Source: a phage. From it: a stretch of DNA of 64,000 nucleotides. Both the position numbers and the translations under genes were made by a program. The notes under the pieces are model-generated. The model did not search any database. It saw only the letters and a list, made by a program, of their open reading frames with translations, and was not told where the DNA came from. Positions 17,688 to 51,219 of the stretch are shown here, in pieces. Location of the stretch: the NCBI GenBank assembly GCA_024975835.1, contig GCA_024975835.1_4840.1. One strand, given 5' to 3'. The first letter of the stretch is position 1, and every line of letters starts with the position of its first letter.

Positions 17688-17754
17688 CAGCGTTTGCTCC
17701 GGCGTTTGTTCTTCATCTTTCTTGGCTTGTCTGTCATGTTCCTGTCCACGAAAA

Positions 17755-17796
17755 AGGGGATAGAGCAATAATACCCTATCCCCTTTTATTGAAGAA
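17755..17796 (-). promoter_or_regulatory. terminator hairpin overlapping a sigma70-like promoter (TTCTTC-N17-TATTAT)
   Basis: GGGGATAG...CTATCCCC hairpin with TTTTT tract after the 17800 gene stop; minus-strand -35 TTCTTC at 17796..17791 and -10 TATTAT at 17773..17768 in the loop. Confidence 0.4.
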
Positions 17797-17799
17797 CGA

Positions 17800-20716: not shown

Positions 20717-20738
20717 AAATCAATCCTTGCAAAAAGAA

Positions 20739-20780
20739 AGGGGAACGGGCTAATATTAACCCATTCCCCTTTATTGAAGA
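20739..20780 (-). promoter_or_regulatory. terminator hairpin overlapping a sigma70-like promoter (TTCTTC-N16-TAATAT)
   Basis: AGGGGAACGGG...CCCATTCCCCT hairpin followed by TTTCTTTTTGC on minus; -35 TTCTTC at 20780..20775, -10 TAATAT at 20758..20753 in the loop; same layout as 17755. Confidence 0.4.
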
Positions 20781-20797
20781 ACGCAATCCGCAGTCAG

Positions 20798-30246: not shown

Positions 30247-30390
30247 GTTAGGTTCCTCAGTGGGTTAGCCATATGGGGTATTTAGGCTTCCCGCTTGGCG
30301 ATGCCTGGTTTGTACAGGACGCCTCTCGGAATATTGGAGGAAGGTTTTCATAGATACCCCACACTGGTTGTATGGGGTATTTAGGATGGA

Positions 30391-40726: not shown

Positions 40727-40740
40727 AAACTAAATACCCC
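40727..40740 (+). promoter_or_regulatory. late-promoter-like motif CTAAATACCCC
   Basis: 34 nt upstream of the first tailspike ATG (40774); part of an 11-bp inverted repeat with the GGGGTATTT ribosome-binding region. Confidence 0.45.
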
Positions 40741-40773
40741 TAGATGAAACGAACACATTTAGGGGTATTTGAA

Positions 40774-43700
40774 ATGGCTAATAAACCAACACAGCCTGTT
40801 TTCCCTCTCGGTCTGGTGGCTGAAGAGCAGTCTACTTTGGCTGGTGTCGTCAACACGGGTACGATTGAGCATGGACCAGATGCTGTCCTGACTTTACCCG
40901 AGGGTAATGCCAGCGCAGGACTCCCGTCTTCCGTTCGCTACAATGCCGACTCCGACGAATTTGAGGGCTTCTATGAAAATGGTGGATGGTTGCCGCTGGG
41001 TGGCGGTGGTATCCGCTGGGAAGTCCTTCCGCATGCCTCTACGGCAACGCTCACTGAAGGGCGAGGCTATCTCATTAATAATACCACAGGGGCATCTACA
41101 GTGGTTCTCCCTTCCCCTACGCGTGTTGGGGATTCTGTTACTATTTGCGACGCTTATGGGAAATTTGCCACTTACCCATTGACTGTGTCTCCTTCTGGAA
41201 ATAATTTGTATGGCTCCACTGAAGACATGGCTATAACAACTGATAACGTATCAGCAACGTTCACTTGGTCTGGACCTGAACAAGGTTGGATTATTACATC
41301 CGGCGTCGGTCTTGGCCAAGGTCGTGTCTACAGTCGTGAAATCTTTACAAAAATTTTGGCGTCTGAGACAAGTTCTGTCACTCTCAATACTCCACCAACA
41401 ATCGTGGACGTGTATGCTGATGGAAAACGTCTTGCGGAATCCAAATATTCACTAGATGGGAATGTAATCACTTTCAGTCCTTCTTTGCCAGCCAGCACAG
41501 AACTTCAGGTGATTGAATATACTCCTATTCAATTGGGTATTGGGGATGGTTCTGGCTCTTCCACGATTACCTGGGTCTATAATGGGGGTTCAGCGATTGG
41601 TGGTGAAACCGAAATCACGTTGGACGTCGTTGTTGATGATGTTCCGGCCATTGATATAAACGGAAGTCGCCAGTATAAAAATCTGGGGTTCACATTCGAT
41701 CCATTAACCAGTAAAATCACTCTTGCGCAAGAACTGGAACCAGAGGATGAAGTTGTTGTAATTATCAATGGAACACCAAACATCTATAATCAAATTGATC
41801 ATACTTTGCGGGAAGTTGCTCGCGCAACCAATGTTAAAGATACAGAGGTCGTTTATTTTAGTGTTGGTGCTGCGTTAAGTGGGTATAAAGTTATTTATGA
41901 CAAGGAGACGCAAAGGGCTTATCCCTTGCCTGCTGATATTGCCCCTGGTACTACTGCTGTCAGTCTTAGTTCTTCCGCTGTACTTGTGCATTCAGCGGGT
42001 TCTGTAGACCTCGGGGAATTGGCTGTTACTCGTGAAGAGTACGTCACATTGTCCGGAACATTTGATACTGGTGTAACAGTTAATACCAAGAATGAACTGG
42101 TTGTTTTTACTGATGGTAAGTACCGTTGGGATGGGGTGTTGCCTAAAGAAGTTTCTGCTGGCTCAACTCCAGAGACTGCTGGTGGTGTAGGTGCGGGAAA
42201 ATGGTTGAGTGTTGGTGATGTATCATTGAGAGCCGACTTACTGTCAGGTGGCATGACTGATTTAATTGGATTTCCTGGGTACAACAATCTTACAGCATTC
42301 TTGCATACCACTGTTCGTACAGTAGAAGAGTTCAGAAGTGACGGACTAACTGACGCACAGGTATTCCAAGCGGCAATCAATGCAGGTAACGTGCGTGTGC
42401 CAGCAGGTAGCGTTATTAACATCACAGGGAATATTGATATCACTATCCCAGCCAATCGTTTAATTGTTGTAGATGACGGAGGTATATTACGCTCTAACGG
42501 TCGTTTTACAGCTTACGGCGTAAACGATGTTCATTGGGTAATTAACGGACTAGTTGAAAGCACTGGCATGGTTGCGGCCCCGGCAAAATCTGGATGGCCC
42601 AATACAGCAGAAGGCACTCAAGCGGGAGATGAGCGTGGGTTTATTGAGTTTGGTGGTGTTGTATTCGCCGGTAACGATGGGAAGAATTATTCTGTAACTG
42701 GTTCAGGGCACATTCAGGGTCCATGGTCTGGAACTCCTAACGTTTCAGATTTAGCCAATCAGTTAAATAAAAAGGGTATTGCTGCGTGGAACTGCTCAGG
42801 ATTCACTGTTGAAGGCGTTAGTATCGACGGCTTTGAAGGTGAGCAAGTGTATTGGTTTGCTCGCAACGCAGACAACAGAGACGCAATTTTCAATAGAGTA
42901 AAAAGTACCAATGCACGTTTTAACGCCCTGAACATGAACGTGTACAGCGCAACAAAAAATATTCGTGTGATCGATTGTTACACCAATAATTCGTACAACG
43001 GAATTGAATCATCTGCTGGTGATATCATTAACACAATCCATGACAATCCGGTTAACACAGGTATTCTGTTTGGTTCAGGTACTGGTGGTGGCAACCGATT
43101 AATTGAAGGCAATCAGGTGAACGAATGCCTCGGAACACCTTATTCACTACTTTATAATAAGGACTATGAAAGTCGTGGGTATGTACCTAACGTTACAGTG
43201 GTAAACAACACCGCAACAAACCCCGGCGTTCACTTCATCGCCATCTCAGGCATCACTGGATTCAAAGTCGCCAACAATACATGTTACGGGCTTAAAACAG
43301 GTAGATTTATTCAGGCCACCGTTTTACAAGGCGGTATTATAGAAAATAATACTAACTACAAACCATCACCAGGGACAGAGCACGTCTATCGTGGCGAATG
43401 TTATAGCGTAGAAGAGCATAATAACGCGCGTGTACTTTTAGGCGGTTCGTATGTTACTGCCGCCGCGTCAGACCACGCCATAACCGGGGGGAATTCAAGC
43501 GCTATAACGACATTCGGCAATCGTGAAAACTTCAAGGATTTACGTGCTGACAGTCCAGCAATCGGAACTGGCGCAGAACTTAGATACTCTGTTGATATAG
43601 GCGCCGCATTTACTCCTGTATCGTTAAGTATGCAACTGACCACATATGGGGGTTCAGGCGCTCAAGCTGACTGGTCTATCAATAACCTAAAGATAAATCC

Positions 43701-44253
43701 TAATGATGTACTTGGGCAGTCATGGGTGTCTCGACATACAGGACATTGGGAACCTGGGACTGATGGTATACAAAATTTCGGGTCACCAACGCGCCGTGTT
43801 AACAACAGCTATTTCACGGTAGCGCCTACTGTAACGTCTAATGAAATGGCTAAAACTGCGCTGTTAGATCTATCTGAAGCAGAACGTAACGCGGCATTAG
43901 AAATTAAAGATAACATTCGCAAGTATAAGCTATTAGATGCTATCGCTATTAAAGGGGAGGATGGTGCCCGTTGGCACTTCGGTGTGGGTGCACAAACGGT
44001 AGGCGATATAATGAGAAAACATGGACTTAATCCTGCTGACTATGGGTTTTGGTGTCACGATACATGGGAAGACCAATACACGGATGTAATGAAAAAAATT
44101 TATACCGGAAATACCGTTGTAAATGAGGAAGGACTTTCAGTTCCTGAATACACATTAGAACCAACAGGTGAAAGGATGCTTGTTAGGACCGCCGGAGAAA
44201 ACTACGGCATTCGTTATGATGAATTGTCTATGTTTATATTAAGTGCAATATAA
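40774..44253 (+). CDS. tailspike protein with N-terminal anchor region, beta-helix and C-terminal chaperone-like domain
   Basis: 1159 aa; conserved about 130-aa module (VKDTEVVYFSVGA...KYRWDG) shared with the next tailspikes; Gly/Asn/Thr-rich beta-helix composition; start at 40774 because the promoter motif precludes the 40744 ATG. Confidence 0.7.
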   Translation: MANKPTQPVFPLGLVAEEQSTLAGVVNTGTIEHGPDAVLTLPEGNASAGLPSSVRYNADSDEFEGFYENGGWLPLGGGGIRWEVLPHASTATLTEGRGYLINNTTGASTVVLPSPTRVGDSVTICDAYGKFATYPLTVSPSGNNLYGSTEDMAITTDNVSATFTWSGPEQGWIITSGVGLGQGRVYSREIFTKILASETSSVTLNTPPTIVDVYADGKRLAESKYSLDGNVITFSPSLPASTELQVIEYTPIQLGIGDGSGSSTITWVYNGGSAIGGETEITLDVVVDDVPAIDINGSRQYKNLGFTFDPLTSKITLAQELEPEDEVVVIINGTPNIYNQIDHTLREVARATNVKDTEVVYFSVGAALSGYKVIYDKETQRAYPLPADIAPGTTAVSLSSSAVLVHSAGSVDLGELAVTREEYVTLSGTFDTGVTVNTKNELVVFTDGKYRWDGVLPKEVSAGSTPETAGGVGAGKWLSVGDVSLRADLLSGGMTDLIGFPGYNNLTAFLHTTVRTVEEFRSDGLTDAQVFQAAINAGNVRVPAGSVINITGNIDITIPANRLIVVDDGGILRSNGRFTAYGVNDVHWVINGLVESTGMVAAPAKSGWPNTAEGTQAGDERGFIEFGGVVFAGNDGKNYSVTGSGHIQGPWSGTPNVSDLANQLNKKGIAAWNCSGFTVEGVSIDGFEGEQVYWFARNADNRDAIFNRVKSTNARFNALNMNVYSATKNIRVIDCYTNNSYNGIESSAGDIINTIHDNPVNTGILFGSGTGGGNRLIEGNQVNECLGTPYSLLYNKDYESRGYVPNVTVVNNTATNPGVHFIAISGITGFKVANNTCYGLKTGRFIQATVLQGGIIENNTNYKPSPGTEHVYRGECYSVEEHNNARVLLGGSYVTAAASDHAITGGNSSAITTFGNRENFKDLRADSPAIGTGAELRYSVDIGAAFTPVSLSMQLTTYGGSGAQADWSINNLKINPNDVLGQSWVSRHTGHWEPGTDGIQNFGSPTRRVNNSYFTVAPTVTSNEMAKTALLDLSEAERNAALEIKDNIRKYKLLDAIAIKGEDGARWHFGVGAQTVGDIMRKHGLNPADYGFWCHDTWEDQYTDVMKKIYTGNTVVNEEGLSVPEYTLEPTGERMLVRTAGENYGIRYDELSMFILSAI

Positions 44254-44257
44254 CAAA

Positions 44258-44277
44258 AACCCCGCTTTGGCGGGGTT
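44258..44277 (+). terminator. rho-independent terminator
   Basis: AACCCCGCTTTGGCGGGGTT hairpin then CTTATTATAC. Confidence 0.5.
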
Positions 44278-44288
44278 CTTATTATACC

Positions 44289-44352
44289 TTTGTTCATAAA
44301 TTTATTAGTTCAGACTAAATACCCTATATTGGCAAATCCTTTATGGGGTATT
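44289..44352 (+). repeat. direct repeat copy 1 (intergenic promoter/leader cassette)
   Basis: About 64 nt nearly identical to 46949..47012 (one mismatch by eye), containing TTGTTCATAAATTTATTAG and CTAAATACCC. Confidence 0.6.
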
Positions 44353-44355
44353 ATC

Positions 44356-46674
44356 ATGATTTCTCAATTCAATCAACCACGCGGCTCCGCTTCCATAGAA
44401 GTTAACAAACAATCTATCGCTCGAAATTTCGGTGTCAAAGAAGACGAAGTCGTTTATTTCACTGCTGGTATTGATCTCAGTGGATTTAAAGTAATTTATG
44501 ATGAGACCACCCAACGGGCTTATTCTCTCCCTTCCGGTATTGTTTCAGGGACAACTGCAATTAGTCTGGACGAACGAGCTATCCTCACTCATTCCGCTGG
44601 TTCTGTTGATCTAGGGGAACTTGCCGTAGCCAGAGAAGAATATGTAACCTTACCTGGTTCATTTGATACCGGTGTAACCGTCAATGCTAAGAATGAATTG
44701 GTTGTCTTTACCGACGGCAAGTACCGTTGGGATGGGGAGATTCCCAAAATAGTACCTGTCAACACAACCCCTAAAGATACTGGGGGTGTTGGTCTAGGGG
44801 CATGGTTAAGAGTCGGCGATGCATCTTTGCGTTCTGAAGTTTACTCAAATATGGCTTGGGTTTCTCCTGAAATGTACGGTGCACTTGAAACGGAATCTGA
44901 TGCGGATACTCAAGCTGTTATAGATGCGTTTATTACCGCGAAGACAATGGGGCTGGCTGTGAAGCTGTCCAGAATATATAAGTGTGATCAAAACATATCA
45001 GTAGCTAATTTTTACGGAGATATTTTTGGCGTAAGTATGGCCACATGCGGAATAAAATTTGCTGCTGGATATGGTCTTATCATTGATAACTCTGGGACCA
45101 CAGTAGTACGCAAACCTGTAGGTCTTTGTAATTTCACCATTAAAGCCACTGGTAAACGACAAGGCACTGCTCTAGAGTTTCTAGGTACTGGTGGAATAGC
45201 TTATGCACGACAACTTATTGTAAGAGATTTAGATGTATCAAATGATGCTGGAACCCCTACCTCTTTTGATGTAGTATTCAAGTTAAACCGTGCAGGTCAA
45301 TGTGTATTTGATGGGGTGAATGTCGCTGGCGGTGGCACAAGCGACCCCAACGCTCGCATGGGCAAAATATTCGACCTGTACTCAACAAAGAATATCAATG
45401 TTGTCAACGGTTCTTATCAGAACTTCGACACCTTCATGTACGCGCATGACGATACCGAAGGTGTTGTGGTTTTCGGTAACCACATCATCGCAGGTCGTCG
45501 TGGTGTTGTCTCAGAAAACAATGTTGGCAACTTGTTCCAGGTAACGAACAACCACTTCAACACATCGTTGAGTGCTGTAGAGTTGGGCGATCTGTCTAAC
45601 AACGGTGGGAACCATAGCATAATCACCGACAACTTCTGTATGGTATGGAATGGGATTCCTGAAGATGATACTACGCCATATATCGGGTTCAAGTCCTGTG
45701 CCATGTACGGAACCTATAGTGATAATGAGGTGCTTCTGTCTGGTTTCACTAAAGACGTTACTCACACCTTGTTTACTTCTAATGCCACAGGGACCAGAAC
45801 GGCACAATACAATATAGTAAGCAACCCAAGAGTTAATAATTGTACCAGAGGCATTCATATGCTGGCTGGCACCCAATCGAACCATGTGAGCAACGTCCAG
45901 CGCGTAGGCGTAACACTGGCAAATGCCATCATAGATGAAGGGGCAAACAACAGGTCATGGATGTTTGATGTAGATAATAATGCATTTATGACCAGAAACA
46001 TAAAATTGTGCACTCCAGGTTCAGCCGTTGCGCAGCAAATTCGTTTTTACTCCGCTACTGATGCAAATACACCAAGCGCCATTCTCCGAGTATCTGGAGG
46101 CGTTGCCGGTGTTGGCGGGGATGGGACGGCAGAGCTTACTGCTGGTACTACCGTCTTTAAAAACATTAGACCGTCAGCTGCAAACACTTATAGCTGCGGA
46201 TCTAGCGGTGCACCGTGGTCTGGCGGGTTCACACAAACTGCATTCACCGTGACATCTGATGCTGATTACAAATCAGATCCACTGCTGATGACTGATGATA
46301 TTCTTGATGCAGCAGAAGAGGTACAACTTGTCCAGTATCAATATCTCGACAGGATTGAAGAAAAAGGAGCTGACGGTGCCCGCTGGCACTTCGGAGCCAT
46401 TGCACAACGGTATGTAGAGGCATTTGAAAGACACGGGCTTGATGCTCATCGCTTTGGGTTCATCTGTTATGATGAATGGGGTGATGCTCCTGCTGTCATA
46501 GATGAAGATACTGGCGAAGTGATCACGCCAGCTATTGAGGCAGGATCAAGATACGGCATTCGTTATGAAGAAATGCTGGTAATGGAAGCAGCGCTGCAAC
46601 GCAGAAACTATGCGCGGCTACTTGATAAATACGAAACACTTGAGGCTCGTATTAGCTCATTAGAGAATAAATAA
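44356..46674 (+). CDS. tailspike protein with C-terminal chaperone-like domain
   Basis: 772 aa from ATG 44356 (GGGG site); N-terminal module shared with the other tailspikes; C-terminal GARWHFG...YGIRYEE region shared with the first tailspike. Confidence 0.7.
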   Translation: MISQFNQPRGSASIEVNKQSIARNFGVKEDEVVYFTAGIDLSGFKVIYDETTQRAYSLPSGIVSGTTAISLDERAILTHSAGSVDLGELAVAREEYVTLPGSFDTGVTVNAKNELVVFTDGKYRWDGEIPKIVPVNTTPKDTGGVGLGAWLRVGDASLRSEVYSNMAWVSPEMYGALETESDADTQAVIDAFITAKTMGLAVKLSRIYKCDQNISVANFYGDIFGVSMATCGIKFAAGYGLIIDNSGTTVVRKPVGLCNFTIKATGKRQGTALEFLGTGGIAYARQLIVRDLDVSNDAGTPTSFDVVFKLNRAGQCVFDGVNVAGGGTSDPNARMGKIFDLYSTKNINVVNGSYQNFDTFMYAHDDTEGVVVFGNHIIAGRRGVVSENNVGNLFQVTNNHFNTSLSAVELGDLSNNGGNHSIITDNFCMVWNGIPEDDTTPYIGFKSCAMYGTYSDNEVLLSGFTKDVTHTLFTSNATGTRTAQYNIVSNPRVNNCTRGIHMLAGTQSNHVSNVQRVGVTLANAIIDEGANNRSWMFDVDNNAFMTRNIKLCTPGSAVAQQIRFYSATDANTPSAILRVSGGVAGVGGDGTAELTAGTTVFKNIRPSAANTYSCGSSGAPWSGGFTQTAFTVTSDADYKSDPLLMTDDILDAAEEVQLVQYQYLDRIEEKGADGARWHFGAIAQRYVEAFERHGLDAHRFGFICYDEWGDAPAVIDEDTGEVITPAIEAGSRYGIRYEEMLVMEAALQRRNYARLLDKYETLEARISSLENK

Positions 46675-46762
46675 AAATCCTACTCTCCTGAGAGTACTAT
46701 GTATATGCATTCGTTATTTACGGTTGTAAACTATAGTAATTACATTAACAATCCAATAGGTA

Positions 46763-46780
46763 AGCCCCAGCATATGGGCT
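46763..46780 (+). terminator. rho-independent terminator
   Basis: AGCCCCAGCATATGGGCT hairpin followed by TTTTTGTTG. Confidence 0.5.
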
Positions 46781-46914
46781 TTTTGTTGTACCCCAAACAA
46801 TCCTTTATGTAGACTGTTTTAGTCAATTACGACTTAACTAACCTGAGAAAGTCCCTATGGGAAATGAACCAGATAACGTAACTCTAGCGAGAGACTGAGA
46901 AACATTTCGAAAAC

Positions 46915-46937
46915 CAAAACCCCGCTTCGGTGGGGTT
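46915..46937 (+). terminator. rho-independent terminator (second, tandem)
   Basis: AACCCCGCTTCGGTGGGGTT hairpin then TCTCTTATAC; homologous to the 44258 terminator. Confidence 0.45.
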
Positions 46938-46948
46938 TCTCTTATACA

Positions 46949-47012
46949 TTTGTTCATAAATTTATTAGTTCAGACTAAATACCCCATATTGGCAAATCCT
47001 TTATGGGGTATT
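46949..47012 (+). repeat. direct repeat copy 2 (intergenic promoter/leader cassette)
   Basis: Near-identical to 44289..44352; includes the late-promoter-like CTAAATACCCC and GGGGTATTT leader. Confidence 0.6.
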
Positions 47013-47017
47013 TTCAA

Positions 47018-49081
47018 ATGACCAGAAACGTCGAGAGCATCTTTGGAGCGGTCGTAACAGCTCCACACCAGATTCCATACACTTACACAGCAACTGGCGG
47101 AGAGAAGTTTATCTCCCTCCCTTTCTACCCTGTCACTGGAGTAGTCACAGTCAACGGTAGTATGCAAGTTCCGTTAGACAACTTCGAGATAGACGGGAAT
47201 ACGTTAAACCTTGGGCGCGCATTATCCAAAGGCGATGTTGTGTTCTGTCTGTTTGATAAGATTCTTTCGCCAGAAGATTATAAAACCGGGATTCGAATCT
47301 ATAAGTTTCAGGCTGTAGGAGGTGAAACTGAGTTCACTCCTGATTTCACATCTTATGGAGTCCAATCTCTTTATATCGGTGGTGAGTACAAAACACCCGA
47401 AATTGAATATTCCTATAACAGCACGACAGGGAAAGTGTCTTTGCAAACTGCACTGACTGCAGGCGTTTGGGTTGTGGCTGAAATGTCTGCTAAACAACCG
47501 AATATCGGTCCGTTGTTTGACCGAAGTATTCAAGAAATCGCTCGTGCAGCTAACGTAAAAGACTCTGAAGTAATCCTTAGTACAGATAGTACCCAGTTCC
47601 TGAATGACAAGAAGATTGTTTATTCTGTTAGTGAACAGAAGGCTTATGGGTTACCAGTATTACCTACTAACGTATTCATTCAGTCTGTGGATAATGGCAA
47701 GTTAACTTACTCCCCAGGTAACATTGCTGTAGACCTGGTTCCTGTTCCTGGCTCTGCTGAGTCACTTACTGCTTCGGATGTTCCAACTACTTCTGGGGAT
47801 TCCGTACAGGATGGGTTAGATAGTATTGATGTATTTATTGATACTGACTCATATAAGAGAGTTGGGGATATTCGCGGTTATACAACCACGCAGGATGTAA
47901 CTCCTGTTAACGCAATTATTGCAGCAAATCAAGATGTTGGTATTATTCGGCTACCTAAGGGTAACTGGACTGGTAACTTTGCTCTGCTAAATAAAACTAG
48001 TTTAGATGGCACTTCACTTGCTACTACAACGTTAACTGTTCCAATTAATACAGCAGGTATTAAACCCTCCGGTACTGATGTACGTGGTATTAACATTAGT
48101 AACATTGCTATGCAGGTGGTGGGTGCTGTGTCTGGTGGGGCACCAATTGGTACAGGTATTGGTCTGGATATGACTGGCTGTACTAAGATGGTTAACTGTA
48201 CTATTTCTAATATCTATAGTGATTTCTTTGATATTGGTTTCAAAGCTGGCCCTGCTGATTTCTCTAACGTTTACAATAACATTCGCTGTAATAACAACCG
48301 TATTGGTTTTGATATTTCTAGTAACGGGCAGATTATTGAGAATACCTGGAACAGCCCATATGCTGCTAACTGGACCCAGATTGGTATGAAGATTAGTGGT
48401 GTTGGTGGTCAGGTAATCAATGCACCAAACTTTGGGCATAATGGCACCGCTGGCGCTTACTTCATGCACATTGACACCAACTCCCGTGGAGTGATTATTA
48501 ATGGTGCTAACTTCGAAATGGATGCTGTAGGTGGTAAACTTTCTGCTGGTAGCCAAGCAGTAATTGTAGCTTCTGACTCAGCAGTTACTTTTAATGCCCC
48601 TGTATTCAATAAGGTTGGTGCTGCTGGCCCTAATACCTATCTTTTTCGTATCCGTGGTACATGTGTAGTACATATTAACAATCCGCAGATTTACAATGAT
48701 GATGGGATTGTTGGACACTTACGTATTGAAGATACTGCTACTGTATATCTGAATGACCCTAAAGGCGTTATTACGGTAATTTCTGTGGCAGCAGGTGCTA
48801 AGTTGATTCGTGTACATGAAAAACTGGCTAATGCACCTAGTTATACGGCTGTTCAATCAGTTCAGTCTGGTACAGTTGTAAACGTTGGTTTCTATCCTAC
48901 GTATGCTATAGGTGTACCGGATTTCCATGCCAGCGCACTACCAGCTACATTTAAGTATGCCGTTACCTTTGATACGTATAACTCTACCCATGGAACTATG
49001 GTAGCTAGGGTTTACGATACTACTACCGGGTTGTATGTTACTTCAGTATCTGTTCCCACATTCATTCAAGCATGGCGTTAG
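47018..49081 (+). CDS. tailspike protein (divergent N-terminal module, beta-helix)
   Basis: 687 aa; Gly/Asn/Thr-rich repeats; VKDSEV remnant of the shared module; start at 47018 after the promoter cassette. Confidence 0.65.
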   Translation: MTRNVESIFGAVVTAPHQIPYTYTATGGEKFISLPFYPVTGVVTVNGSMQVPLDNFEIDGNTLNLGRALSKGDVVFCLFDKILSPEDYKTGIRIYKFQAVGGETEFTPDFTSYGVQSLYIGGEYKTPEIEYSYNSTTGKVSLQTALTAGVWVVAEMSAKQPNIGPLFDRSIQEIARAANVKDSEVILSTDSTQFLNDKKIVYSVSEQKAYGLPVLPTNVFIQSVDNGKLTYSPGNIAVDLVPVPGSAESLTASDVPTTSGDSVQDGLDSIDVFIDTDSYKRVGDIRGYTTTQDVTPVNAIIAANQDVGIIRLPKGNWTGNFALLNKTSLDGTSLATTTLTVPINTAGIKPSGTDVRGINISNIAMQVVGAVSGGAPIGTGIGLDMTGCTKMVNCTISNIYSDFFDIGFKAGPADFSNVYNNIRCNNNRIGFDISSNGQIIENTWNSPYAANWTQIGMKISGVGGQVINAPNFGHNGTAGAYFMHIDTNSRGVIINGANFEMDAVGGKLSAGSQAVIVASDSAVTFNAPVFNKVGAAGPNTYLFRIRGTCVVHINNPQIYNDDGIVGHLRIEDTATVYLNDPKGVITVISVAAGAKLIRVHEKLANAPSYTAVQSVQSGTVVNVGFYPTYAIGVPDFHASALPATFKYAVTFDTYNSTHGTMVARVYDTTTGLYVTSVSVPTFIQAWR

Positions 49082-49085
49082 TAAC

Positions 49086-49112
49086 TGCCCCCCCCTTCTC
49101 TCCTGGGAGGGG
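49086..49112 (+). terminator. stem-loop (weak terminator) between tailspike genes
   Basis: CCCCCCT...AGGGGGG hairpin followed by TTTCC. Confidence 0.35.
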
Positions 49113-49140
49113 GGTTTCCTAGAAAAACAAAGAGGTTTAT

Positions 49141-51219
49141 ATGAACGAAATGTTCTCACAAGGTGGTAAGGGTTCAACTGGAATCTTAACCAACAAACAA
49201 GCAGTAGCTCGTCACTTTGGGGTTAAACAATCTGAGGTTGTTTACTTCTCAGTGGGTGCTGTACTAAGCGGTTATAAAGTTATCTATGACAAAGTGTCAC
49301 AGCGTGCTTATTCCTTACCTGCCGACATTGGTTCAGGGGTTACTGCTGTAAGCCTTAGTCCTGCTGGGGTATTAGTTCACTCTGACGGTAATGTTGACTT
49401 GGGTGCACTAGCCGTTACCCGCGAAGAGTATGTAACCCTACCTGGCTCATTTACTACAGGCGTTACTGTTAATAGTAAAAATGAACTTGTTGTGAGTGTT
49501 GGTGTTAAATACCGTTGGGATGGTTCTCTACCTAAAGTAGTTCCTCCTGATTCTACTCCATTAAGCACTGGGGGAGTTGGCCCAGGGGCATGGATAGTAG
49601 AAGGTGTTGCTGGGTTGGAGCAACGTTTGGCTTCCTGGGAAGGTTCATCCATTATTGACTCTGGTAATCTGTCCCTTTACAAAAAGAGTGGTGTATTTGG
49701 TGATGGTGGGGAAGTAACTGATAAGCAACAGGTTATTAAGCATACAGATGGATTTTGGTACAAGTATACTGGAACCCTGCCCGTTAGCTATGGCTCTGCC
49801 CCAGACTCTTCCTGGACTAATGTTGGTAAGTTAACCGGGTTTAATGAACACTCACCTGAGAACTTTGGGGCAATCCCGAACGATGCCAGCTTTGACTGTC
49901 TACCTGCTATAAAATTAGCTATAGCTACAGGCACATTAAACCTGGATGGTAATTCTACCTACCACGTAACTGATGAGGTTATCATACCCTCACATCTACG
50001 TGGGAATTTGAATGGGGCAACAATCAAAGCAATCGGTCCTACCTGGCCTGTATTAAAATCTGTTGTTCGTGTTAGTAAATTTCCTATTGGAACCCCAACC
50101 GTTGATGTAGCTAATACTGAGAACCAGGTACGAGGGCTACGTTTAATTGGTAGTTTGAACATAGACTGTGCAGATATTGCATCGTATGGTTTTTACGCAC
50201 GACTAATGTGTGCAGAATCCGAGATGGGTAGTATCTATTCTTACAATGCTAATAAGTATGGCATTGTAATGTTCGCTTGCTGGTATTTTCAGATGGGCGT
50301 GCTTCATGCAAACAATTGTGCAAGGGGGATGGCTTTAGGTTACTCAACAGAAGGGGAGCAGGGCGATACTTACGTAAACGCAACATACTTCCCACACATT
50401 AGTGCATGGGGTACTGATAAGTCTACGGGGCTAGGCTATGACCCAATCACCGACGATGCAAGTAAGTACACAATAGGTGCTGGTATTATTCTAGGCCGTG
50501 GTTTGTCCACTAGTGTTGGTGTGCTGTGCTCTGAGAATACATCCGGTGCTGGTGTGGTAACAATGGACCCTGCTGCGTGGGATATTGGAGTTATGTACTG
50601 TGAGGGCAACAGTAAAGACTTCACTCAGGAGGGTGAGCCGAAGGTATCATTGTTGTCATCTAAGGCTAACAGCGAGAGTCATACACTTACCATCTCTACA
50701 CTTCACCTATCTGCTGGTTGTGGCATTTTAACCAGAAGTAAACAAGAACGGGTGTTGATCAGAAGTCTTTACCGTTTTGATAATTCAAAAACCTTCCACT
50801 CTTACTGCACAGAAGATACAATAGAGATTGGTAGTAGCAACTACTATGTACTTAATGGTCATAATTACAATGCACCTGCTGCACTTATTAAAGAACCTCT
50901 CAATGTGGATTTTGTGCGATCAGGGCTGACCTTGAGTGAGTGGACACCTACCGTTATTGGTTACTTTCCTGGCAGCACGTCAGAACAACAGCTTTATGTT
51001 AAGCTGCCTGTAAGCCCTAGTGGGCTAGATCTACAGATTGCTAGTGAAGATGGTACAGAATACATCACTGTAACTGGCACAGATTTTAAAGCCTCTTTAA
51101 CCAAGAAAAGGCTGCCCAGTAAGGTGTATGAGATAAAGATTGGGTCTGTCTCAACAGTAGCTGTTACTGATTGCTCCATTTTAATCAGAAGTAAAAAAGG
51201 AGATTGGTACTACTGGTAA
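49141..51219 (+). CDS. tailspike protein
   Basis: 692 aa; AAAGAGG site; N-terminal module VKQSEVVYFSVGAVLSGYKVIYDK...KYRWDG closely matches the first two tailspikes. Confidence 0.65.
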   Translation: MNEMFSQGGKGSTGILTNKQAVARHFGVKQSEVVYFSVGAVLSGYKVIYDKVSQRAYSLPADIGSGVTAVSLSPAGVLVHSDGNVDLGALAVTREEYVTLPGSFTTGVTVNSKNELVVSVGVKYRWDGSLPKVVPPDSTPLSTGGVGPGAWIVEGVAGLEQRLASWEGSSIIDSGNLSLYKKSGVFGDGGEVTDKQQVIKHTDGFWYKYTGTLPVSYGSAPDSSWTNVGKLTGFNEHSPENFGAIPNDASFDCLPAIKLAIATGTLNLDGNSTYHVTDEVIIPSHLRGNLNGATIKAIGPTWPVLKSVVRVSKFPIGTPTVDVANTENQVRGLRLIGSLNIDCADIASYGFYARLMCAESEMGSIYSYNANKYGIVMFACWYFQMGVLHANNCARGMALGYSTEGEQGDTYVNATYFPHISAWGTDKSTGLGYDPITDDASKYTIGAGIILGRGLSTSVGVLCSENTSGAGVVTMDPAAWDIGVMYCEGNSKDFTQEGEPKVSLLSSKANSESHTLTISTLHLSAGCGILTRSKQERVLIRSLYRFDNSKTFHSYCTEDTIEIGSSNYYVLNGHNYNAPAALIKEPLNVDFVRSGLTLSEWTPTVIGYFPGSTSEQQLYVKLPVSPSGLDLQIASEDGTEYITVTGTDFKASLTKKRLPSKVYEIKIGSVSTVAVTDCSILIRSKKGDWYYW

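Follow-up and report, generated by a model that had tools for sequence, protein, structure and literature searches.

A repeated terminator, late-promoter and ribosome-site hairpin unit flanking a tailspike gene of an Agtrevirus-like phage, and its probable second role as a homology arm

Two nearly identical 64-nt sequences flank the second of four consecutive tailspike genes in a 64,000-nt stretch of phage DNA (GenBank assembly GCA_024975835.1, contig GCA_024975835.1_4840.1), referred to here as the window. They are copies of a composite unit of terminator, late-type promoter and ribosome-site hairpin that is placed before tailspike genes in many Ackermannviridae. On balance, the evidence favors a reading in which this inter-tailspike regulatory unit doubles as a homology arm, at a locus that has experienced both swaps of tailspike cassettes and import from G7C-like podophages. 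The original prediction had instead taken the repeat pair as the mark of a recent cassette insertion or replacement between leader repeats.

The window belongs, judging from a backbone 90-96% identical to Agtrevirus-type genomes, to an Agtrevirus-like phage of the Ackermannviridae. Its tailspike genes lie behind a gp6-wedge module and encode Tail_spike_N domains and conserved N termini, as in the tsp1-4 clusters of the family, and their order (tsp4, tsp3, tsp2, tsp1) matches that of annotated relatives. The gene coordinates that follow were corrected from the reading frames.

40774-44253, plus strand: tsp4 gene, 1159 aa, with an Agtrevirus-like N-terminal anchor part and Pfam Tail_spike_N at aa 417-482
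44356-46674, plus strand: tsp3 gene, 772 aa, with conserved N terminus, Tail_spike_N, receptor-binding part and Peptidase_S74 chaperone
47018-49081, plus strand: tsp2 gene, 687 aa
49141-51219: tsp1 gene, from reading frames
41989-42228, plus strand: Tail_spike_N (tandem-domain) coding repeat in tsp4, with further copies in tsp3 (44590-44829) and tsp1 (49378-49617) (73% and 65%)

Divergence of the second tailspike gene, tsp3, from its paralogues is confirmed: TSP3 is 61-66% identical to TSP4 and TSP1 over the N-terminal ~150 residues only, and 35% identical to TSP4 across the C-terminal chaperone domain. The expected variation in cassette content among relatives is enormous, the best single phage record covering at most 26% of the tailspike cluster.

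An ungapped alignment of 44289-44352 with 46949-47012 gives 63 identical positions of 64, the one difference that had been counted by eye being T44325 against C46985. In a repeat search the pair extends to 105 nt (44252-44356 and 46912-47016) at 91% identity, and the first 36 nt occur exactly twice in the window at up to three mismatches (none expected, 100 shuffles). The description of the repeat as a promoter/leader cassette with a terminator upstream is likewise sound, and its elements are as follows.

44254-44355, plus strand: tsp3 leader cassette, comprising terminator, spacer TTTGTTCATAAATTTATTAGTTCAGA, promoter, hairpin and Shine-Dalgarno site; its last bases (ATCATG) are tsp3-type, everything up to and including the loop tsp2-type
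46912-47017, plus strand: tsp2 leader cassette, with a 63-nt core identical to the copy in Kuttervirus Mutine
44258-44277, plus strand: intrinsic-terminator-like hairpin AACCCCGCTTTGGCGGGGTT after tsp4, flagged by the terminator scan; eight pairs, six of them G-C, tail CTTATTAT
46762-46781, plus strand: terminator-like hairpin in the spacer, flagged by the scan; tail TTTGTTGT
46917-46938, plus strand: terminator hairpin of the tsp2 cassette, a 9-bp stem in the minimum-energy fold with a weaker T-run, tail TCTCTTAT; unflagged by the scan
44315-44321, plus strand: CTAAATA, predicted tsp3 late promoter box, with predicted transcription start near 44327
46975-46981, plus strand: CTAAATA, predicted tsp2 late promoter box, with predicted start near 46987
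40730-40773, plus strand: tsp4 leader, with CTAAATA at 40730-40736 and a 16-bp hairpin pairing the box and the following CCCCTAGATG with the Shine-Dalgarno region (-23.5 kcal/mol, z -6.7)
44318-44352, plus strand: tsp3 leader hairpin, arms 44318-44328 (AATACCCTATA) and 44342-44352 (TATGGGGTATT), folding at -17.2 kcal/mol (z -3.9)
46977-47013, plus strand: tsp2 leader hairpin, with perfect 12-bp arms 46977-46988 and 47002-47013 and Shine-Dalgarno GGGG at 47005-47008

A terminator-like hairpin had been claimed just upstream of each repeat; a G+C-rich hairpin does precede both, but the second was not flagged by the scan. The hairpins show the G+C-rich stem-loop and following T-rich run of intrinsic terminators, termination itself being predicted. 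No family in Rfam 15 reached its gathering score (best 26.8 bits against gathering scores of 41-60), and all the weak matches fall on terminator hairpins. Between terminator and promoter box lies a conserved A+T-rich spacer of ~35 nt.

The composite unit is widespread. A 72-nt cassette query matches 249 phage records, with most Kuttervirus records matched in two places each at 93-97% identity. Nine other genomes have the long form before tsp3 as well as before tsp2, and the same two-position arrangement is found in most Kuttervirus and many Agtrevirus genomes; the core without the long form is what Limestonevirus, Taipeivirus, Nezavisimistyvirus and some Agtrevirus have. With both copies at the same two positions across so many genomes, near-identity of the duplicates does not mark a recent insertion. 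Presence at every late gene with invariant cassette content would have pointed to a generic promoter, and here the outcome is divided: the core promoter motif is generic and recurs at other late genes of the window, but the long form is confined to two sites, and cassette content does vary.

Strong purifying selection on a promoter/leader, with no recombination between copies, might by itself keep the copies alike. Conservation of the cassette between genera is indeed 93-97%, against only about 85% identity for the backbones, and the match to Mutine extends over 63 nt. Yet orthologous tsp3 leaders keep a distinct TCATCC loop in all nine other long-form genomes and in 163 further records found by BLAST, whereas the window's tsp3 copy carries the tsp2 loop, CAAATCC, and a sister phage with the same tsp3 does not. 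Functional selection leaves such a switch between two conserved loop types unexplained, making conservation alone a very unlikely account.

The promoter element of the unit is of a recognizable kind. CTAAATA occurs at 11 sites in the window, nine of which are 25-50 nt upstream of the start codon of a late or structural gene on the same strand, including those for the gp6 wedge, tsp4, tsp3, tsp2, a VriC-like protein, gp14 and the probable sheath, and it precedes late genes likewise in four other genera (Kuttervirus, Limestonevirus, Taipeivirus and Nezavisimistyvirus). The fuller core, CTAAATAcccc...GGGGTAT, is also found upstream of tsp4 and other late genes. Sigma-70-like promoters in the region are at chance level (23 found, 23.1 expected). 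A T4 late promoter is an 8-bp box that precedes the start by about one helical turn, and phage Aeh1 has an a/gC variant at the first two box positions (-13/-12) (PMC2988020). Given its conserved 8-bp A+T-rich box, the lack of a -35 element and the late genes downstream, NCTAAATA is predicted to be a late promoter of this T4/Aeh1 type; the spacing used for the predicted starts, ~6 nt past the box, is borrowed from T4 (PMC2988020). Homologues of gp55, gp33 and gp45 have been reported in the ViI-like phages CBA120 and AG3 (PMC3184105, PMC3121705). A late promoter motif was not identified in the CBA120 paper (PMC3184105), and the AG3 paper sought TATAAATA allowing one mismatch (PMC3121705).

Behind the box, the bases pair with the gene's own Shine-Dalgarno region in eight of the nine late leaders of the window. 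The pairing is absent from the late leader at 30285 (minus strand) and from several Taipeivirus and Limestonevirus leaders. In the tsp3 hairpin the loop contains the diagnostic CAAATCC and the 3' arm the Shine-Dalgarno GGGG (44345-44348). Folds of the tsp4, tsp3 and tsp2 leaders have z scores of -3.9 to -6.7, with none of 200 shuffles folding equally well; RNA begun 6 nt past the box has structure no greater than background (z +0.3 and +0.9). The result is a stable helix that includes the Shine-Dalgarno site, as in the e/soc-type gating hairpins of T4. Matched arm pairs average -10.5 kcal/mol compared with -6.7 for mismatched pairs, and 7 of 20,000 permutations were as good, a test in which the tsp3 and tsp2 leaders, as paralogues, are not independent points. 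The single C-to-T difference between the two copies (C46985, T44325) preserves a G-U pair.

These features suggest how the unit might work. An intrinsic terminator hairpin would close the transcript of the upstream tailspike gene, followed by the spacer and the late promoter box; the end of the box and the next 4-9 bases (ATACCCCATA) would form the 5' arm of a second hairpin, and the Shine-Dalgarno region (TATGGGGTAT), just before the start codon, its 3' arm. A late polymerase starting ~6 nt past the box, as in T4, would produce an mRNA without the 5' arm and with the ribosome site free, and RNA read through from upstream would contain both arms, sequester the ribosome site and be untranslatable. 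Each tailspike gene would in this way be an autonomous, insulated expression module. We infer this gating, with read-through RNA silent and promoter-initiated RNA translatable, from a geometry that fits it: the box and the 5' arm overlap, and RNA beginning at +6, a start position assumed from T4, is unstructured. The terminator immediately upstream may make read-through so rare that the hairpin is of no consequence, and as the bases behind the box are CCCC, not A+T-rich as in T4, the late polymerase may behave differently here. The literature searched holds no measured transcription start, terminator efficiency or translation effect for any Ackermannviridae phage.

The hairpin could also be real but serve another purpose, as an RNase III or RNase E site, as a protector of the 3' end of the upstream message, or as a promoter feature at the DNA level in which CCCC is a discriminator and the complementarity secondary. 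High conservation of CCCC right behind the box, where T4 has A+T (PMC2988020), hints at promoter-specific contacts, and the terminator already upstream lessens the need for translational insulation. The Shine-Dalgarno bases, however, always fall within the 3' arm, and boxes trailed by TCTTC, CCTTC or TCTTTC have matching GGAG, GAGGG or GAAGGA sites, a correspondence that a fixed promoter discriminator would not require. The design is, moreover, identical to that of the proven T4 cases (PMC3014915), so that a role of this other kind is unlikely.

Gating aside, the locus carries the recombination scars that had been anticipated. The blocks and remnants concerned are listed below.

41843-44286, plus strand: tsp4 receptor-binding block with stop codon and terminator, common to the gp63.1-slot tailspike gene of a G7C-like podophage contig
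44641-46838, plus strand: tsp3 block identical to sister contigs L029-L031 (100% over 2198 nt), consisting of the receptor-binding part and 164 nt of 3' flank
46675-46761, plus strand: 87-nt spacer right behind the tsp3 stop codon, traveling with the tsp3 block
46762-46921, plus strand: remnant of G7C-like (Gamaleyavirus) DNA 3' of a tailspike gene, starting with the terminator-like hairpin 46762-46781
46857-46898, plus strand: dead 5' end of N4/G7C gene 63, with the sequence MGNEPDNVTLAR ahead of a 10-nt deletion and a stop codon

The tsp4 block is 89.5% identical in DNA to L033 over 2447 nt, and 42121-44285 is 90% identical to L032; homology to the G7C-like DNA stops just past the shared terminator, the hairpin at 44258-44277 being found also after tailspike genes of G7C-like phages. 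The upstream part of the gene has other affinities, with residues 1-477 of TSP4 95% identical to A221 TSP4 and the DNA up to about 42233 94-97% identical to L027/L029. Against L029-L031, the window shows nine differences in 44258-44335, then none in 129 nt, 14 in 176 nt and none in 2198 nt, and in L027 the tsp3 receptor-binding module of the window occupies the tsp4 slot. The receptor-binding parts of tsp4 and tsp3 would thus have been replaced as cassettes, with 5' junctions in the coding Tail_spike_N repeat, which appears to be the 5' recombination arm for these cassettes, and 3' junctions at the terminator or in the flank. This pattern runs counter to leader repeats as the junctions of demonstrably recent exchange, the 5' end of the 100%-identical tsp3 block lying inside the coding repeat at about 44641; the tsp4 import has its 3' end at the terminator.

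The non-coding insert between tsp3 and tsp2, predicted to be 300 nt with two tandem terminators, is 274 nt long (46675-46948); two hairpins are roughly right, one at 46762-46781 and the other the cassette's own. It is foreign flank DNA from G7C-like podophages rather than a leader-mediated product. The 87 nt behind tsp3 have no match in the phage collection, and the remnant that follows is 85-90% identical to 16 Gamaleyavirus records and to Agtrevirus A221, PC3/PH4 and AV101, joining the tsp2 cassette within AAAACCAAAACCCCGC. Relatives carry a second type of spacer debris from the same G7C-like neighborhood. The spacer is best viewed as a probable scar of tailspike import from a G7C-like (N4-type) podophage. 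Within Agtrevirus a 150-nt spacer sequence stands after tsp4 (A221), after tsp3 (window and PC3) or after tsp1 (AV101), and such movement between slots could suggest that spacer or repeat is mobile, as a small MITE-like element or as a homing endonuclease target or footprint. This idea is extremely improbable: terminal inverted repeats, target duplications and an Rfam family match are all lacking, the sequence is single-copy in the window, in G7C-like phages it consists of ordinary intergenic DNA and the beginning of gene 63, and it always lies directly 3' of a tailspike gene, as expected from hitch-hiking with imported genes.

A role for the leaders themselves as crossover or conversion sites is supported by hybrid copies. 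The tsp3 and tsp2 leaders of one genome differ at one position in the window and at 4-10 positions in the nine other long-form genomes; compared with those of other genomes, the window's tsp3 copy has 1-6 differences from tsp2 copies and 5-12 from tsp3 copies. Among 163 records with a tsp3-type leader and start, none exceeds 96.8% identity to the window, so none carries the tsp2-type loop, and the sister contigs L029-L031 have the canonical tsp3 loop together with a different tsp4. LHE287 provides the reciprocal hybrid, a tsp3-type loop joined to the tsp2 start, with tsp3 absent. A tsp2-type copy may therefore have replaced the window's tsp3 copy as far as the loop, by conversion or crossover, which would leave the two copies 63/64 identical instead of differing at 4-10 positions as elsewhere. 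Since the two leader types differ diagnostically only in the loop and the bases before ATG, this conversion rests on a patch of ~7 nt, absent from the 163 records. The closest backbone relative of the window, fGh-Ecl02, has a tsp2-type loop too, before a different tsp3, so that the state in the window may be inherited rather than new. Junctions located in the cassette comprise the hybrid leaders (window, LHE287), the end of the tsp4 import at the terminator, and that of YX22 at CTTGTTATACC; the 5' end of the recent tsp3 block lies elsewhere, in coding DNA. The recombination events could have run in either direction and in more than one order.

One specific history would start from a three-gene ancestor (tsp4, leader, tsp2) into which homologous recombination between leaders inserted a donor segment (leader, tsp3, flank, leader), creating the flanking repeats. 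Three-gene relatives exist (A221, LHE287), the TSP4 N termini of A221 and the window are 95% identical, and the hybrid tsp3 leader, whose tsp2-type sequence runs to the loop and gives way to tsp3-type bases just before ATG, is exactly what a left-hand crossover inside the leader would leave; the reciprocal hybrid in LHE287, lacking tsp3, agrees. Four genes with both leaders are nonetheless the common state in Kuttervirus and many Agtrevirus genomes, and three-gene genomes are more simply deletions. The junction of G7C remnant and leader is common to the window, PC3 and A221 and so predates the window lineage, and in the recent exchange with a sister phage the 5' junction falls near 44641, within the coding repeat and not in the leader. 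We consider this history quite unlikely. The reading of a regulatory unit with a second role draws instead on its repetition and on a terminator hairpin shared with tailspike genes of other phages, through which the unit doubles as a short homology arm.

A broader proposal is more tentative. Agtrevirus myophages and G7C-like (N4-type) podophages may form one tailspike exchange community, with the Tail_spike_N coding repeat as the 5' arm, the shared terminator hairpin CCCCGCTTYGGCGGGG or an earlier-imported G7C flank serving as a landing pad as the 3' arm, and the resident leader making a captured gene insulated and correctly timed. As a separate matter, promoter-embedded anti-Shine-Dalgarno gating might be general for Ackermannviridae late genes, not rare as in T4. 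Tailspikes set host range, and Ackermannviridae phages are widely used in biocontrol, detection and the engineering of Salmonella and E. coli phages. Natural cassette boundaries show engineers where to cut, at the Tail_spike_N repeat (5') and at terminator plus leader (3'), and correct timing and level of expression should follow for a cassette that supplies its own terminator, late promoter and gated ribosome site or encounters them where it inserts. Beyond similarity at the protein level, the G7C-derived debris gives direct physical evidence of repeated gene flow from podophage to myophage across families. If general, the promoter-embedded design would give the family a late-promoter definition that can be tested, where the CBA120 genome paper reported none, and would amount to a second, far wider application of a control device described for few T4 genes.

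Several known systems share parts of this arrangement. T4-family late promoters (TATAAATA; PMC2988020) have, like those of the window, an 8-bp A+T-rich box upstream of structural genes and no -35 element, and NCTAAATA fits the Aeh1-type variant (PMC2988020); behind the box, T4 is A+T-rich (PMC2988020), whereas the window has G+C-rich CCCC. In T4, the late promoters of genes e, soc, 49 and I-TevI encode the 5' strand of a helix that blocks translation of transcripts initiated upstream (PMC3014915, section 29). As in the window leaders, the late promoter box lies in or beside the 5' arm, the Shine-Dalgarno site falls within the 3' arm, and late transcripts, predicted ones in the window, are without the 5' arm (PMC3014915). 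In T4 this is a special device of few late genes embedded in early regions (PMC3014915), but in the window the pairing is predicted at most of the late structural genes examined (8/9), even behind other late genes and a terminator.

PeSL cassettes of T4-type phages (Arbiol et al. 2010, PMC2839356; Comeau et al. 2014, PMC4122927) are, like the window unit, small repeated composites of terminator stem-loop and promoter that flank variable genes, and recombination between their copies gives rise to insertions, deletions and replacements, so that a regulatory unit also drives modular shuffling (PMC2839356, PMC4122927). The PeSL promoter is sigma-70-like and early, in contrast to the late-type CTAAATA, and the window unit has in addition a ribosome-site hairpin. 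PeSLs accompany small ORFans in hyperplastic regions; the long form here has two copies per genome and flanks large, essential host-range genes. Excised mini-circles are a PeSL trait.

Exchange of Ackermannviridae tailspike receptor-binding domains as modules via conserved N-terminal XD/TD domains is described in the portions consulted of Sorensen et al. (2021, PMC8432352; 2023, PMC10791037; 2024, PMC11414711) and of a review (PMC11721090). Those portions agree with the window in placing 5' junctions in the tandem-domain (Tail_spike_N) repeat, in finding the same module in different slots, and in describing modules traded with prophages and unrelated lytic phages. They treat coding 5' ends, with no account in them of 3' junctions, of a repeated leader/terminator cassette or of G7C-derived non-coding debris. 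The branched tailspike module of G7C, gp66/gp63.1 (Gamaleyavirus; HQ259105 annotation; Prokhorov et al. 2017, as cited in PMC10791037), has N-terminal domains homologous to Ackermannviridae TSPs, residues 1-163 of gp63.1 being 74% identical to TSP1 of the window. G7C-like phages and the window share the terminator hairpin after a tailspike gene. Unlike the window, G7C-like phages are without the CTAAATA leader, and behind their tailspike gene come gene 63, holin and endolysin, of which the window retains only the dead gene 63 fragment.

The window belongs to an Agtrevirus-like phage of the Ackermannviridae, with a backbone 90-96% identical to those of fGh-Ecl02, A221, PC3, vB_CECAV_050, AG3 and others. 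On the + strand, the gp6 wedge gene and two baseplate genes are followed by the tailspike genes tsp4, tsp3, tsp2 and tsp1 and a VriC-like gene, a tailspike order that matches CBA120, Mutine and Det7.

Tailspike genes of the window
40774-44253, + strand, tsp4
44356-46674, + strand, tsp3 (start codon at 44356)
47018-49081, + strand, tsp2
49141-51219, + strand, tsp1

The Pfam Tail_spike_N domain is found in TSP4, TSP3 and TSP1, and TSP3 ends in a C-terminal Peptidase_S74 chaperone. As DNA-level coverage of the cluster does not exceed 26% for any single phage record, all four receptor-binding parts are unlike those of sequenced relatives among the phage records. DNA and protein searches of the phage collection with the tsp3 and tsp4 receptor-binding parts returned no close match, giving chaperone-domain similarity and partial protein matches of 44-56%, several of them in Gamaleyavirus records; the close relatives of these parts come from large protein and assembly collections, not from the phage collection. 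In the tsp2-tsp1 spacer (49082-49140) there is a C8/G6 hairpin (CCCCCCCCTTCTCTCCTGGGAGGGGGG) together with an AGAGG ribosome site, but no CTAAATA. For its expression, tsp1 probably relies on the tsp2 transcript. Most relatives read have this short-form spacer.

The leaders of tsp3 and tsp2 are, as originally noted, nearly identical: 44289-44352 and 46949-47012 align without gaps and agree at 63 of 64 positions. The match extends to a longer repeat pair of 105 nt at 91% identity (44252-44356 and 46912-47016), and with up to 3 mismatches allowed, the first 36 nt of the repeat have exactly two occurrences in the window, where chance predicts none. Each copy also has a G+C-rich hairpin upstream. 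From the tsp3 stop codon to the second copy, the spacer, which had been put at 300 nt, measures 274 nt and contains an additional hairpin.

Hairpins associated with the repeats
44258-44277, + strand, upstream of the first copy, flagged as terminator-like in the scan
46917-46938, + strand, upstream of the second copy, seen in the minimum-energy fold, with a weaker T-run
46762-46781, + strand, additional terminator-like hairpin in the tsp3-tsp2 spacer, from the terminator scan

An Rfam scan of 44150-47150 gave sub-threshold, terminator-like matches and assigned no family. Tandem gene duplication as the source of the repeats is rejected because the N-termini of TSP3 and TSP2 are not homologous.

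The distribution of the leader cassette is broad. A 72-nt query taken from the first copy matched 249 phage records, with two places per genome at 93-97% identity in most Kuttervirus. In all nine other genomes read that have the long cassette at both positions (CBA120, Mutine, Det7, EP75, Se-B, vB_CECAV_050, YX22, AV101 and PC3), one copy precedes tsp3 and one precedes tsp2. The tsp3-type leader is diagnosed by the loop TTGGTCATCC and the end GGGGTATTATCATG, and the tsp2-type leader by TTGGCAAATCC and GGGGTATYTTCAAATG. Of this cassette, other genera and some Agtrevirus genomes have just the last 40 nt at the 3' end, which run from CTAAATA to the start codon. A pattern scan of IMG/VR for leader copies found only 7 loci, all of Kuttervirus type, with one tsp2-type loop per genome. 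As both copies stand at the same two positions across much of the family, the duplication is old, and the repeats are not the footprint of a recent insertion that they had been taken for.

The element shared by these leaders is a candidate late promoter. CTAAATA occurs at 11 sites in the window, nine of which lie 25-50 nt upstream of a late or structural start codon on the same strand.

CTAAATA sites before late genes
36865, 40730, 44315, 46975, 51282, 57793 and 62076, + strand
30384 and 30285, - strand

The genes behind them are those for the gp6 wedge, tsp4, tsp3, tsp2, the VriC-like protein, gp14, a probable sheath protein and two minus-strand genes, and placement is alike in Taipeivirus, Limestonevirus, Nezavisimistyvirus and Kuttervirus. 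T4 late promoters consist of an 8-bp box that precedes the start by about one helical turn, and the Aeh1 variant has a/gC at the first two positions (PMC2988020); the window's NCTAAATA fits this Aeh1-type variant. ViI-like phages encode homologues of gp55, gp33 and gp45 (PMC3184105, PMC3121705). The late promoter of this group was stated as not identified in the CBA120 paper (PMC3184105), the AG3 paper used the motif TATAAATA with one mismatch allowed (PMC3121705), and for LIMEstone 33 late promoters are listed with no sequence in the text. No published late-promoter motif or leader description for Ackermannviridae was found in the literature searched, and the words "promoter" and "intergenic" are absent from a 2024 review. 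The hybrid tsp3 leader also gives a 10/12 match to a sigma-70 promoter (TTGGCA, 17 nt, TATCAT; 44329-44357) ending at the start codon, which is probably accidental because the whole promoter scan is at chance level.

In the late leaders, the Shine-Dalgarno region is complementary to the last bases of the box and those that follow.

Complementary arms of late leaders
tsp2 leader, + strand, AAATACCCCATA / TATGGGGTATTT, 12 bp
tsp4 leader, + strand, AAATACCCCTAGATG / CATTTAGGGGTATTT
gp14 leader, ATACCTTCAA / TTGAGGGTAT

The leader folds are much more stable than shuffled sequences (z -3.9 to -6.7), and the RNA predicted to begin 6 nt past the box is unstructured. Box-adjacent bases pair with the gene's own Shine-Dalgarno in 8 of 9 late leaders. 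Because the stems hardly vary among orthologues, arm binding was compared among paralogous late leaders: matched arms bind at -10.5 kcal/mol versus -6.7 kcal/mol for mismatched ones, a result equalled in 7 of 20,000 permutations. The one position at which the window's copies disagree (C to T, 5' arm) retains a G-U pair. The arrangement predicted for the tailspike leaders is that of T4 e, soc, 49 and I-TevI, in which transcripts started upstream go untranslated because they form a helix with its 5' strand encoded by the late promoter (PMC3014915). By analogy, each tailspike gene would be translated only from its own late transcripts, with the upstream terminator insulating it further. The analysis shows the placement of the motif, the predicted structure and a complementarity that tracks each gene's own ribosome site; the start position, read-through and translational effect are inferred. 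Pairing of the bases after CTAAATA with the Shine-Dalgarno may, on these predictions, be a general late-gene design in Ackermannviridae. Elsewhere in the window, two 47-nt hairpin elements (17752-17798 and 20737-20783; 74% identical) both precede a copy of TTATTGAAGAACG; they may represent a further repeated unit of terminator plus signal in the early or replication region.

The leaders are themselves subject to exchange. The tsp3 and tsp2 copies differ at one position in the window and at 4-10 within each of the nine other long-form genomes. Compared with other genomes, the window's tsp3 copy shows 1-6 differences from tsp2 copies and 5-12 from tsp3 copies because it combines a tsp2-type loop with tsp3-type bases before the ATG. 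Full-length identity to 44326-44390 reaches at most 96.8% in the 163 phage records that have a tsp3-type leader and start, so the window's loop is present in none of them. In fGh-Ecl02 the same tsp2-type loop precedes a different tsp3, and LHE287, which is without tsp3, has the reciprocal hybrid of a tsp3-type loop with the tsp2 ending and gene. Thus, leaders recombine or convert, yielding both hybrids as well as gene loss. The closest backbone relative is fGh-Ecl02, whose cassettes lack their 5' half before both tsp3 and tsp2 (L008:6823-6917). The N-terminus of its tsp3 product, annotated in the record as 85% identical to a G7C tail fibre protein, is unlike that of the window's TSP3.

A recent exchange is seen in a sister phage represented by contigs L029-L031 from three assemblies, which has a canonical tsp3 loop, a different tsp4 (1022 aa) and a TSP3 unlike the window's only in its N-terminal part.

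Differences between the window and the sister phage
44258-44335 (leader), 78 nt, 9 differences
44336-44464, 129 nt, 0 differences
44465-44640, 176 nt, 14 differences
44641-46838, 2198 nt, 0 differences

With no difference in 2198 nt, the tsp3 receptor-binding block and its 3' flank must have been shared very recently. The 5' junction of the block lies within the Tail_spike_N coding repeat, a region proposed earlier as an exchange site (PMC8432352, PMC10791037).

Copies of the Tail_spike_N coding repeat, from the repeat search
41989-42228, + strand
44590-44829, + strand
49378-49617, + strand

All three contigs end 164 nt past the stop codon, which hides the 3' junction. These independent assemblies all break (L029:10483, L030:4453, L031:4439) inside a G7C-like remnant, and the common break may come from sequence repeated in the samples, for example shared by co-occurring phages. 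The tsp3 receptor-binding module also occupies the tsp4 slot of another Ackermannviridae contig (L027) at 87-88% identity. The receptor-binding part of TSP3 (44850-46200) shares 79-82% identity with tailspikes of P22-like E. coli prophages bearing the P22 head-binding domain (PF09008), a similarity that suggests specificity for an E. coli O-antigen. An NCBI protein (P0002; 100% identical, 74-kb contig) considered as a G7C-like donor proved to be a truncated ORF call (607/772 aa) next to a truncated tsp4 call, and its contig is most likely this phage or a near-identical one within an E. coli assembly. This protein (EJS6251367.1, 607 aa) and its neighbour on the 74,022-bp contig (P0098, EJS6251366.1, 1008 aa) appear to be calls of the window's TSP3 and TSP4 cut short at the N-terminus.

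Positions 46762-46921, in the tsp3-tsp2 spacer, are 85-90% identical to the DNA directly 3' of the gp63.1 tailspike gene in G7C-like podophages (Gamaleyavirus, Schitoviridae), and the match extends into the first 70 nt of their gene 63. The window keeps MGNEPDNVTLAR, identical to the N-terminus of G7C gp63, followed by a 10-nt deletion and a stop codon. As N4-type phages have a complete, conserved gene 63, of which the window has no more than a stump, transfer from podophage to myophage is the direction indicated, and the spacer is, to judge from its sequence, a cross-family import scar. The same remnant is found after tsp3 in PC3 and PH4, after tsp4 in A221 and after tsp1 in AV101. Its junction with the tsp2 leader, in AAAACCAAAACCCCGC, is common to the window, PC3 and A221 and so is older than the window's lineage. 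The spacer's first 87 nt, which travel with the tsp3 block, have no match in the phage collection. With respect to a mobile element, terminal inverted repeats were not found and the window has one copy only; a MITE paper (PMC11602168) names Ackermannviridae only in a reference. An exact 11-nt repeat, AATCCTTTATG, is common to the G7C-like remnant (46799-46809) and the tsp2-type loop and 3' arm (46995-47005) and could be microhomology for illegitimate recombination, or chance.

Likewise, tsp4 appears to be imported. Over 2447 nt, positions 41843-44286 share 89.5% identity with the gp63.1-slot gene of G7C-like contig L033, where the gene order is terminase, adaptor, 893-aa protein, 833-aa protein, gene 63, holin, endolysin, Rz and portal. 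Homology ends just past a terminator, CAAAAACCCCGCTTYGGCGGGGTT, used by both phage groups; in L033 a minus-strand gene for a 208-aa protein comes after it, and pieces of this gene, at 77-92% identity, form the other long spacers in A221, PC3, LHE287, fGh-Ecl02 and YX22.

Second debris type (TTTTCTTATATAGARTTTACTGTTTGCATTACCC...) in comparison contigs, matching the 3' part of the 208-aa gene (L033 9505-9807)
L005:8397-8847
L006:10451-10901
L008:14401-14822
L009:8676-9027
L010:10452-11097

Taken with the G7C-like remnant, these pieces make the long Agtrevirus tailspike spacers, repeatedly, debris of a G7C-like neighbourhood.

The proposal of cassette replacement through the leader repeats is therefore to be divided. 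This is a replacement locus in which the leaders take part, but the repeats did not arise as a by-product of insertion and are a regulatory unit that is conserved. The recent exchange has its 5' junction in the coding repeat, and the tsp4 import, which is older, stopped at the terminator that both phage groups use. Tailspike swapping as such is already well known; the literature searched holds no description of the 3' junctions and G7C-derived debris, of hybrid leaders, or of the apparently general pairing of late promoter and ribosome site. The nearest known concept is the promoter-early stem-loop (PeSL) cassette of T4-type phages, which joins promoter and terminator (PMC2839356, PMC4122927). 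Unlike it, the tailspike cassette has a late promoter and a predicted translational gate of the T4 e/soc type.
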